DNA of 30,018 nucleotides, taken from NCBI GenBank assembly GCA_027057185.1, contig JALUJE010000106.1, forward strand, positions 1-30,018, in the 5' to 3' direction. Every line of letters begins with the position of its first letter. Position 1 is the stretch's first letter. The translations under genes were made by a program, and so were the position numbers. The stretch comes from Helicobacteraceae bacterium (GTDB lineage Bacteria; Campylobacterota; Campylobacteria; Campylobacterales; Sulfurimonadaceae). The notes beneath the pieces are model-generated. The model searched no databases. It was not told the origin of the DNA and saw only the letters and a list, made by a program, of their open reading frames with translations. Of this stretch, positions 8,896 to 11,932 are shown in pieces.

Positions 8896-9165
8896 TTACA
8901 GAACCATTTTAACATGTTGATTGGCCTTAAGTGCTTCGTAAATAAAATTACGATCCTCTTCATTGTGCACCAGAAGGTCAAGATTCATGCTCAAGTAGGT
9001 GCCACTACAACTCTGATTTGACTGTTTTAGTGTATGGGCACGTTCACAGATGACATCGTGAACGGCCTGTTCGAGTCGTTCGCGCTCTTTGCCAATAATC
9101 TTATAGGTCCAGTTGCAGGGATACTCCAGTTGGAGTTTTTGCGTACTATCGTTGATAATTTCCAC
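8896..9165 (-). CDS. DUF493 / YbeD / HP0495-family protein
   Basis: [13 protein letters not shown]...[29 protein letters not shown]. Start reassigned to GTG 9165, which has an SD AAGGAGG upstream. Confidence 0.88.
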
Positions 9166-9616
9166 TCTTGCCTCCTTCTTTGGATTCGAGTTGGATCTGA
9201 TGTATGACCATCGCCTTGTCAATGGCTTTGACCATATCATAAACGGTAAGCAGTCCAATGCTTACTCCGGTGAGAGCTTCCATCTCCACTCCGGTTTTCC
9301 CGGTCAATTTTACTTTGAGAAACATCTTAAACCCGGGTAGTTCCGGTAGCTCTTGCATATCACACTCAATACCGCTGAGATTGAGTGGATGACACATGGG
9401 AATCAGTTCGCTGGTTTTTTTTGTACCCATAATTGCGGCAATTACCGCTGTCTGAAGTACCGGTCCTTTTTTGGCTTTTTCATGGATGATAGCATCATAG
9501 GCATCACGACTCATCTCAATAATGCCACTGGCAACCGCGATGCGGGTACTGGACTCTTTCGCCGAGACATCGACCATTTTGGGGCGATCGTGCTCATCTA
9601 AATGGGTTAATTTCAT
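9146..9616 (-). CDS. moaC: Cyclic pyranopterin monophosphate synthase (Moco biosynthesis)
   Basis: LTHLD...[44 protein letters not shown]. Confidence 0.98.
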
Positions 9617-9725: not shown

Positions 9726-9752
9726 TAAAGTTTTTGTTAAAGTGGTCGATAT
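9726..9752 (+). promoter_or_regulatory. Sigma28 (FliA) promoter for the cytochrome-MCP operon
   Basis: TAAAGTTT-N11-GTCGATAT against the consensus TAAAGTTT-N11-GCCGATAA; 37 bp upstream of ATG 9790. Confidence 0.75.
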
Positions 9753-9789
9753 AACTCGAAATAAAACCATCAACCCTAAAGGAGAAGTT

Positions 9790-10296
9790 ATGAAAAATAT
9801 TGCTGTTACAGCCCTCGCAGGTATGTTGTCAGTCAGTTTATTGGCAGGATCTGAAGCGTCATACCCTGCCACATGGAAAGAATTTGTGAGTGTTAAAACG
9901 CCGCTGATGAAAGCCGGAGGTGCTCTTCCTGGGTGTGATGCCGATGTCAGCAGTCTGCCCAAGGTGTATCAGGAAACGGTAGCGACCTATTGTGCCGTGA
10001 AAGAGGGTGGCCCTGGAGTAGTAGAAATTTTGGTAGCACCTGAAGCACTTGAGACCTATAAAGCCAGAAACGGAGCATTTCACGACGGCGATACCCTAAT
10101 TTTGCATCTAAAAGACCTTCAGGTACTTTTTGTTACATCCTATAAAGGAAACAAACCGCTGTATGGCGTGTATGACGAGTCTGGAAAAGACGTTGCGTCT
10201 TCTGAGGGTTCCGGATTGCACCCAAATGACTGTCGAACTTGTCATACGGGCTATGAAGCATTTGGTGTCAATGGTCAGATGGGCTCATTAAAATAG
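9790..10296 (+). CDS. Periplasmic monoheme c-type cytochrome, cytochrome P460 / c'-beta-like
   Basis: Sec signal, N-terminal YPATWKEF, FHDGDTLILH beta-strand and a single C-terminal CRTCH (10231-10245). Start reassigned to ATG 9790 (SD AAGGAG). Confidence 0.72.
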   Translation: MKNIAVTALAGMLSVSLLAGSEASYPATWKEFVSVKTPLMKAGGALPGCDADVSSLPKVYQETVATYCAVKEGGPGVVEILVAPEALETYKARNGAFHDGDTLILHLKDLQVLFVTSYKGNKPLYGVYDESGKDVASSEGSGLHPNDCRTCHTGYEAFGVNGQMGSLK

Positions 10297-10327
10297 TATT
10301 TGATACGTTAATTATAAGGAAATTGTT

Positions 10328-11932
10328 ATGGTATTAGGGAGGTTGTTGTCTATAAAAATCTTGATTCAGCTCATGGTTGCAGTCATCTTGTTAGTTTCGT
10401 TTATGGTAACGGGGTATTTTTTGTATGAGGAGAAAGTGCATGAAAACGAACAGCATCTTGAGGAGATCAGTAAGGTGGCATTGGCTCCTATTGTCACCCT
10501 AGCGAATGCTTCGGTAGCGGGAGGGAATATCATGCGATTGAAAAATCAAGATGCCCAATCGCTTTATCATACCACCAAGGCACTGTTTATATCCATTAAG
10601 GGAATGAGTAATGCCAAAGAGATTTTTGGTAAAAAACAGCCCCCTAAAGAGATTGCATACACCTATCTTGGCAATACGGAAGCACCCGCATCGCTCTCTC
10701 AAAAAGCGGCATGGGAATTGCTCAGAAATACGCCCGAGACCCAGGGAGTCTTTTTTTCACCGGATCGTGCCTATCTGATTATTAAAAAGCGACTCGATGT
10801 CGCTAACGGCGGTGAGGTACAGGCAATTTTTGATTCGAGTCGATTGACATCACTACGAGTGAATACCATTGTGGCACTGCTCAAGATTCTTATTCCGATT
10901 ATGATTATTTTTCAGATATTGGCATTTTTCATCTCCCGTAAAATTTTAGAACCGTTGATCGAGACACAAAAAACTGTAGACGCCATGGCACAAAATCGTG
11001 ACCTTACTACCAGTATTGAGTTGGTGAAGATTGTAGAAATCAATGCGATTAATAGGAGTTTCAATAATCTCGTTGAGAGTATGCGGGGATTGATTCTCGA
11101 TGCCAAAAGTATCTCTGGGTCGACGCAGCAGCAGAGCAATAATTTAGTAGATATATCTGAAAAGACGTTAGCAGAAATACAGACTCAAGATACCCTGATT
11201 GCAACAACCTACAAAGATCTTGTCTCGATAAACGAGACTATTGCAACGTTGTGTGATGATACCAAAGAGGGCATTCGCGCTATTTCCGATACCAAACAGT
11301 CTGTGGATGACTTTAGTTCGCAACTTGAGAGTATGGCGGCACATATTATGCACAATCTGGAAACCGAAACGGAATTGAGTGAGCGAATTCATCAGGTGAG
11401 TGTTGAGACGGCAGAGGTAAAACTGGTGCTGGATGTGATTAAGGATATTGCCGATCAAACCAATTTGTTAGCCCTTAATGCTGCCATTGAGGCGGCACGC
11501 GCCGGTGAGCATGGCAGGGGTTTTGCTGTTGTCGCCGATGAGGTTAGACAGTTGGCCGAAAAGACCCAAAAAAGTCTTAACGATATTGAGAGCACGGTCA
11601 ATGTTATTGTTCAGTCTATCTCCAACGTCAGTGATGATATGAAACAAAACAGTGAGCGTCTTCCCGAATTGGCCAATACGATGGAGACGTCCAAAGAGTC
11701 TATGCAGCATATTAGTGCACTTATGAACAATCTCCGGGATGATGCGCAACAGGTATCGGACATTAATGCCGAGATTAGCCTATCTATCAGCAGGCTTCAG
11801 TCCAATATGGATCAGGTGCATAAAATTTCGCAGGTGAATGAACAGATGACGGCACAAGTGACGCACAGTGCTAAAGATCTCAAAGGTTCAGTAGCCATGC
11901 TCGATAAAAATATTGAAACCTTCAAAATTTAG
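10328..11932 (+). CDS. Methyl-accepting chemotaxis protein (two TMs, periplasmic sensor, HAMP, signalling domain)
   Basis: [41 protein letters not shown]; two hydrophobic segments flank a periplasmic domain of about 150 aa. Confidence 0.97.

Follow-up and report, generated by a model that had tools for sequence, protein, structure and literature searches.

A 30,018-nt stretch of contig JALUJE010000106.1 from a Helicobacteraceae bacterium (assembly GCA_027057185.1; hereafter the window) carries a gene for an exported cytochrome directly followed by a gene for a methyl-accepting chemotaxis protein (MCP), and this pair probably encodes a sensor made of two proteins that responds to a gas, to sulfide or to redox state outside the cell membrane. 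The reading we favour, with moderate confidence, is that of a two-protein periplasmic sensor in which the cytochrome is the sensing subunit and a PDC-like domain of the receptor reads its state by contact. An earlier note on this DNA had proposed the cytochrome as the ligand-binding subunit of the receptor, and the pairing at the heart of that proposal turns out to be conserved in other taxa. The evidence comes from gene neighbourhoods, from the sequences and modelled folds of both proteins, and from distant homologues in which the same kind of pair is connected to other outputs.

Loci were scanned with one genome per species, and 41 of them hold a relative of the cytochrome (46-82% identity). 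At 38 of the 41, a homologue of the N-terminal 200 residues of the MCP lies directly beside the cytochrome gene, usually 13-100 nt downstream, and all 29 partners that are complete are MCPs. The loci come from at least five phyla, namely Campylobacterota, Nitrospinota, Pseudomonadota, Acidobacteriota and Bdellovibrionota (Halobacteriovoraceae), with Rhodocyclaceae, Sulfuricellaceae, Thiobacillaceae, Sedimenticola, Piscirickettsiaceae and others as the carriers within Pseudomonadota. The gene order can also be reversed, as in two groundwater Nitrospinota metagenome-assembled genomes (MAGs) where the MCP gene is upstream (L027:2252-4444 and L028:2252-4444). Of the three loci that remain, one ends 214 nt past the cytochrome gene and two, L039 and L044, are true orphans. 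When all open reading frames (ORFs) of the loci were clustered, the cytochrome (40 loci) and its partner (38 loci) were the only families to recur widely; the next real family reaches at most five. Of 201 Campylobacterales genomes sampled, four have the cytochrome and these same four have the partner; the other 197 lack both. Searches of six entire genomes (the window's own and five more) found the sensor domain only adjoining a cytochrome gene, once as two tandem MCPs. The notion that the adjacency is chance or simple synteny with no functional meaning can be given next to no weight: it has to contend with recurrence over this many loci and phyla, with differing flanks, reversed order and three types of output (described below), and it is contradicted by both the Campylobacterales co-occurrence and the ORF clustering.

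Several features of individual loci can be placed beside this picture. In a Helicobacteraceae MAG (L026:4001-8192), two MCP genes in tandem, for proteins of 680 and 525 aa, come after a single cytochrome gene, and both have the same outer domain. The Piscirickettsiaceae partners are longer, at about 729 aa (L040:1511-3697, L042:4569-6755, L043:4586-6775 and L045:4575-6761), with some 240 extra residues between the outer and the MCP signalling domains that gave HAMP_2 and PAS matches in a family-wide Pfam scan. Partner ORFs are shortened in two MAGs (L007:4539-5894, 452 aa; L013:4454-4975, 174 aa); similarity to MCPs continues there in another frame, and the shortening is due to frameshifts or assembly errors. 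Sampling 14 genomes from the window's own family turned up no pair; in another family of the order, 3 of 14 have it. Because it is so patchily distributed among the sampled families, transfer or repeated loss of a two-gene unit is suggested. The complete genome of Sulfurimonas sp. CS5 (NZ_CP180409.1, locus L020) also carries the pair.

The receptor qualifies as an MCP, with Pfam matches above cut-off to MCPsignal (PF00015, 127.5 bits) and HAMP (PF00672, 26.7 bits) and, in the model, helices 9-65 and 172-204 flanking its outer domain. The outer domain itself is more unusual. Its alignment (A3) is marked by the motifs GGN(I/L)MKLK, GMS, QPPK and NGG-x-V-x-A-(I/V)-F, and residues N67, G92, S94, P105, L156, N160, G162 and F168 are invariant. 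Searches of Pfam (Cache, CHASE and 4HB families included) with 32 members returned no match even at E 1, searches of PDB sequences returned none either, and a word-index search with the domain recovered close relatives only. Modelling was more informative: the predicted structure (predicted local distance difference test, pLDDT, 89) has a long N-terminal helix, a PAS-like alpha/beta core and a return helix. Its best fold matches are WalK (Z 9.9 in an integrative model with YycH, 7.6 in a crystal structure) and LuxQ in its complex with LuxP (Z 8.4), followed at about 7 by Tlp3, TlpA, Mlp24 and PctC. The domain is thus modelled as PDC/Cache-like and belongs to an unnamed sequence family, the middling Z values placing it at the level of the fold only.

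The match to WalK raises the alternative that the cytochrome is a non-sensing accessory (a stabiliser, an assembly factor or a constitutive inhibitor of the outer domain), in the manner of YycH/YycI with WalK. The best fold match being WalK modelled with YycH would agree with this, as would the strictly conserved pairing. We regard it as quite improbable, however, since a covalent haem, an apparently open distal site and a mean identity across phyla of 62%, against 33% for the receptor domain, are hard to explain for a passive scaffold. The higher conservation of the cytochrome fits a constrained cofactor site.

The sensing subunit we propose is a small haem protein. That it is an exported monohaem protein with a C-terminal CxxCH had been noted before and agrees with its putative signal peptide and with a single such motif, CRTCH (residues 148-152 of 168). 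In the alignment of the close family (A1), SE-x-(S/P)-(F/Y)-P opens the conserved mature part. Its homologues number 242 and are mostly 165-169 aa long. An exhaustive phmmer search of 1.84 billion representatives yielded just 43 clusters, so the family is small and distinct. Sequence comparison points to the cytochrome P460/c'-beta superfamily: the Pfam P460 match (PF16694) scores 18.2 bits, below the cut-off of 27 (the highest score among relatives is 26.9 bits), McCP-beta is recovered at E 0.07 by a profile built from close homologues, and with a wider profile 12 of the 15 top PDB entries are P460/c'-beta proteins (best E 0.002). The AlphaFold2 model (pLDDT 75.6) leads to the same place. In VIA-align, the top 15 PDB entries all belong to this superfamily, with Z from 8.5 to 5.2 over 105-112 residues, and the next, unrelated entry scores 3.6. 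Foldseek places proteins of the same superfamily at the top, and a search of the AlphaFold Database (AFDB) agrees. As modelled, then, the haem protein has the cytochrome P460/c'-beta fold, whose five-stranded antiparallel beta-sheet has been reported as unique to these two groups (PMC11928373).

Which of the two groups it belongs to can be read from two positions at the haem. The lysines cross-linked to haem in true P460s are Lys70 of NeP460, Lys78 of McP460 and Lys106 of NsP460, and the distal carboxylates used for proton relay are Glu96 of NeP460 and Asp102 of McP460 (PMC11928373). Three alignments put Leu105 of the window protein at the cross-link position, which is occupied by L, M, F, V or G in the wider family; Gly126 is at the carboxylate position and aligns with Gly82 of McCP-beta. 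A hydrophobic residue at the first position and Gly at the second are what McCP-beta and TtCP-beta have, and because of these two residues the haem protein is assigned by alignment to the c'-beta type and not to the true P460s. Neither a haem-lysine cross-link nor hydroxylamine oxidase activity is predicted. Of the earlier description as P460/c'-beta-like, the fold therefore stands and P460 proper does not; a P460-like cross-link with a Soret band near 460 nm, which had been put forward as something to look for, is not to be expected. A true cytochrome P460, with Lys-cross-linked haem and hydroxylamine oxidase activity at a locus serving nitrogen metabolism, could call on the weak Pfam match and on an invariant Lys108 three residues past the cross-link position. 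It is very improbable given the residues just named (Table 2 of PMC11928373), the higher VIA-align scores of c'-beta structures (TtCP-beta 8.5, McCP-beta 8.0 and NeCP-beta 7.9, against 7.3 for McP460 and 5.2-5.5 for NsP460 and NeP460) and the lack of any conserved nitrogen-cycle gene nearby.

The ligation of the haem iron can be approached in the same way. Neither in 24 close nor in 33 wider homologues is there a conserved Met, or a conserved His beyond that of CxxCH, so a His/Met six-coordinate haem is unlikely, in keeping with the earlier supposition that the haem is not of this kind. A five-coordinate haem with an open distal site may be proposed instead. The most conserved block of the protein is the Cys49-Cys68 segment, an insertion of about 20 residues that was deduced from a gap between aligned blocks relative to TtCP-beta (7ead). 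C49 and C68 are invariant in the close family (A1) and lost jointly in a distant clade (A4). This joint conservation and loss fits a disulfide between them, which had been suggested for the extra Cys pair; either cysteine as a haem ligand was considered and is less likely than a disulfide, the two being lost together. The segment may be the site that decides ligand access or partner contact. Most members have a second Cys pair at the C terminus, C-x-N-G-Q-C, probably a second disulfide. In the window clade (10264-10281) both of these cysteines have been lost together, leaving Gly159 and Met164 (G-V-N-G-Q-M).

More distant homologues of the cytochrome (29-36% identity) show that the pair is not confined to chemoreceptors. 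Downstream of four of them lie, respectively, an MCP (P0135), a HAMP-SpoIIE (PP2C) phosphatase (P0136), a HAMP-HisKA-HATPase-REC hybrid histidine kinase (P0138) and a gene truncated at the contig end, whose HAMP match is weak and sub-threshold (P0150). The outer domain of each of these four downstream proteins is homologous to that of the MCP (hidden Markov model E 5e-15 to 2e-5), with hhalign probabilities of 96-97% for the two outer domains compared in that way. Where the output is the kinase, the phosphatase or the MCP, the cytochromes are at 32-34% identity and the E-values of the outer domains run from 1e-13 to 5e-15. That a haem protein and its dedicated outer domain keep together while the output changes is the pattern that would be expected of a portable sensory input module. 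The histidine kinase variant is rare, since a word-index search with it found one near-identical protein only. That variant (L048:1-3883) adjoins divergent cheA-like (Hpt, HATPase_c) and cheW genes and a multi-PAS protein. In another branch (L052:1-3348), the distant homologue P0140 has no sensor partner and stands among class I cytochrome c genes and a gene starting with a cytochrome cd1 (NirS-like) match; these neighbours suggest a denitrification-linked role for the branch. Met69 of the MCP domain was considered as an inter-protein haem ligand, but Ala takes its place in the kinase and PP2C variants, and as a general feature it was therefore rejected.

The mechanism we propose begins with the soluble c'-beta-type cytochrome as input subunit. 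Its haem, with an open distal site, would bind a small ligand (NO, CO, O2 and sulfide are candidates) or change redox state, and the PDC/Cache-like outer domain of the MCP would read this change by protein-protein contact. The signal would then pass via HAMP to the CheA/CheW array and steer swimming. Such logic would be that of LuxP-LuxQ or MBP-Tar, with a haem protein replacing the solute-binding protein. Most carriers are sulfur oxidisers, denitrifiers or nitrite oxidisers living at redox interfaces, and NO and CO are ligands of c'-beta proteins (PMC11928373); NO, CO, O2, sulfide or redox potential are candidate signals for these reasons. In the window's lineage, the operon would be under FliA and the pair made together with late flagellar and chemotaxis genes.

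Several points limit the case for a sensor of this design. The MCP domain, as modelled, includes its own PDC-type pocket, in which a small molecule could bind without the cytochrome. A single complex prediction, for which the mature cytochrome was combined with haem and with the outer domain of the MCP, reached 0.18 where the mark was 0.32 and speaks neither for nor against contact. Cytochromes without a partner nearby exist in the two orphan loci, three distant homologues also have no such partner, and the kinase and PP2C variants are each a single case. What is said here of haem coordination and of the cross-link comes from alignments that are weak (E 0.002-0.08) and from a medium-confidence model. 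Finally, the identity matrices of the two proteins correlate (r 0.84; Mantel 0/2000), but r falls to 0.28 among distant pairs and the correlation therefore reflects mostly shared descent.

Some of these points feed the main rival explanation, in which the cytochrome works chemically on a compound of the periplasm, for example by removing or transforming NO, hydroxylamine or sulfide, and the MCP senses the compound or its product in its own PDC pocket with no contact between the two proteins. Cache/PDC-like folds usually bind small ligands directly, members of the P460 superfamily include enzymes (PMC11928373), and the complex prediction gave contact no support. We nevertheless judge this explanation unlikely, as the catalytic sites of P460 are replaced by Leu105 and Gly126 in the window protein, no other metabolic gene is conserved in the neighbourhood, and the sensor domain never occurs without an adjoining cytochrome gene in the genomes searched, a linkage not expected of a free-standing ligand sensor. 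A sensor in which the cytochrome is read by contact remains the reading we prefer.

Expression of the pair in the window can be related to motility through its promoter. The near-perfect FliA-type promoter claimed in the earlier note is present: TAAAGTTT at 9726-9733 and GTCGATAT at 9745-9752 are separated by an 11-nt spacer and end 37 nt before the ATG at 9790. In a genome scan that required both cores (TAAA and CGAT) and used the E. coli-type sigma-28 consensus, the site scores 14/16 and is tied for the best in the 1.72-Mb assembly, which has 295 sites with both cores. A promoter of the TAAA-N15-GCCGATAA type thus lies at a suitable distance from the haem-protein gene. Flagellin-family genes of the same genome have the same architecture. 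One on contig C25 has TAAAGCTT-N11-GTCGATAT, with a -10 element identical to that of the haem-protein gene; another on C155 has a similar site, TAAATATA-N11-GTCGATAT; and a third on C220 has the variant TAAGTTT-N11-TACGATTT. The genome also encodes fliA (contig C176, above the TIGR02479 cut-off). In close-clade orthologues (L002-L004 and L007-L011, 73-82% identity), the motif is kept 35-39 nt before the start while the surrounding sequence has diverged. The quality of the motif, its conservation in the close clade, the flagellin-gene architecture and the presence of fliA make FliA control of the window locus likely. Sigma-28 control was also considered as a general property of the module and rejected, the motif being absent upstream of the Sulfurimonas-clade loci and of most other loci; by these comparisons the promoter is a feature of the close-clade lineage. 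The other genes of the genome with sigma-28 sites show no similarity to the MCP. Public sequencing runs matching the locus are DNA metagenomes from hydrothermal vents only.

The two genes are co-oriented, and the MCP gene starts 31 nt past the TAG stop of the haem-protein gene, the gap given in the earlier note. The same note had the receptor without a haem motif, which is correct: it lacks CxxCH and contains a single Cys. No terminator-like site was found on the plus strand between the two genes, and the flanks are unrelated to the pair, with a divergent moaC upstream and a convergent MORN-repeat gene downstream. The short gap, the missing terminator and the unrelated flanks are best explained by a single operon of cytochrome and MCP genes, as far as can be told from the DNA. 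A longer ORF from 9676 was considered as the haem-protein gene and rejected. The homologues are 165-169 aa long, and both the ribosome-binding site AAGGAG and the promoter-like site lie inside the longer frame, so the true start is taken to be 9790. Elsewhere in the window (8896-9616), a listed DUF493 ORF with a TTG start at 9258 overlaps moaC by 113 nt on the same strand, and its real start is probably further downstream for that reason. The features of the locus are collected in Table 1.

Table 1. Features of the cytochrome-MCP locus in the window, in order of position.
Feature	Position	Strand	Basis
Sigma-28 (FliA)-type promoter, TAAAGTTT-N11-GTCGATAT	9726..9752	+	Sequence; genome-wide consensus match; conservation in orthologues
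Ribosome-binding site AAGGAG of haem-protein gene	9778..9783	+	6 nt 5' of ATG 9790
Haem-protein gene (P0001), 168 aa; exported monohaem cytochrome, c'-beta-like	9790..10296	+	Translation; homologues; fold match
Putative signal peptide, residues 1-20	9790..9849	+	Hydrophobic N-terminus ending LLAG; start of the conserved mature part in A1
Cys49-Cys68 segment, most conserved block	9934..9993	+	Invariant columns of A1; about 20-residue insertion relative to solved c'-beta proteins at the distal capping loop
Leu105 codon, position of the haem-lysine cross-link of true P460s	10102..10104	+	Alignments; residue identities as tabulated in PMC11928373 (Table 2)
Haem c attachment motif CRTCH (C148, C151, H152)	10231..10245	+	Invariant in A1, nearly invariant in A4
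Intergenic spacer, 31 nt, with MCP ribosome-binding site AAGGAA and without terminator	10297..10327	+	Sequence; terminator scan
MCP gene (P0002), 534 aa	10328..11932	+	MCPsignal and HAMP above Pfam cut-off
Periplasmic sensor domain, about residues 33-180; predicted PDC/Cache-like fold	10424..10867	+	A3 alignment; model; fold matches
HAMP domain, residues 201-253	10928..11086	+	Pfam
MCP signalling domain, residues 351-500	11378..11827	+	Pfam

A strictly conserved pairing with a dedicated receptor domain puts forward a definite role for the cytochrome that can be tested, namely to provide the input of a sensor. If this is true, a branch of the c'-beta family would gain a physiological role. For chemotaxis, it would mean indirect sensing of a new kind, in which a haem protein replaces the solute-binding protein and the outer sensor domain comes from an unnamed family, and it could provide sulfur oxidisers and other interface dwellers with direct taxis to NO, O2, sulfide or the ambient redox potential. 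In ecological terms, such taxis offers a possible way for Sulfurimonas-like sulfur oxidisers, Nitrospinota and others to locate oxic-anoxic or sulfidic interfaces. Sulfurimonas sp. CS5, with its complete genome, can serve as a starting point for experiments. The earlier note knew of no described system of this kind, and a literature search agrees. No paper linking P460/c'-beta proteins to chemoreceptors or sensor kinases was found in a search whose coverage left out most subscription journals; the words 'chemotaxis' and 'methyl-accepting' are absent from the 2025 superfamily review (PMC11928373), and no such system appears in a 2026 review of aerotaxis receptors. Within the literature covered, indirect sensing of the binding-protein type that relies on a c'-beta cytochrome and a PDC-like domain thus has no description, and comparative and structural prediction, as far as it reaches, supports it as a reading of this locus.

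Comparison with known systems can show where the pair is familiar and where it departs from them. Cytochromes c'-beta (McCP-beta 6hih, TtCP-beta 7ead, NeCP-beta 7s5o) and P460 (2je2, 6hiu, 6amg) are likewise periplasmic, about 150 residues long and built on a five-stranded beta-sheet, and they share the C-terminal CxxCH and the (Y/F)P-x-x-W motif near the N terminus. The window protein differs in falling below the Pfam cut-off, in being 12-20% identical to the solved members, and in its conserved insertion at the distal capping loop, probably stapled by Cys49 and Cys68. Whereas the characterised members are tied to NH2OH/NO chemistry in nitrifiers and methanotrophs, the window's family is encoded beside a signal transducer, a context without mention in the 2025 review (PMC11928373). 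Periplasmic c-type haem is also known to feed MCPs, as in GSU0582 and GSU0935 of Geobacter (PMC8396549) and in DcrA of Desulfovibrio (cited in PMC13401364). In those receptors, CxxCH lies inside the receptor's own PAS/Cache-like domain. The window receptor, in contrast, has no haem motif, and the haem is carried by a separate protein of another fold.

In its genetic layout, the pair resembles LuxP-LuxQ (Vibrio, autoinducer AI-2), MBP-Tar and TorT-TorS, where a soluble periplasmic protein is encoded beside its receptor and signals through a PDC/PAS-like or helical outer domain; the periplasmic domain of LuxQ is itself among the best fold matches of the MCP domain. The partner here is instead a c-type haem protein with no periplasmic binding-protein fold, and its contact with the receptor is putative. 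Another useful comparison is with H-NOX and NosP, stand-alone haem proteins encoded beside signalling proteins such as kinases and cyclases, which serve varied outputs and control their partner through gas binding. We see an even chance that the two partners, the c'-beta-like cytochrome and the PDC domain with its GGN and NGG motifs, make up a haem sensor that is periplasmic, widespread and portable, a counterpart of H-NOX and NosP for chemotaxis, two-component and PP2C outputs. H-NOX and NosP are cytoplasmic, carry haem b in unrelated folds and act on cytoplasmic targets, whereas the module in the window is periplasmic, carries haem c and would act on the outer domain of its receptor.

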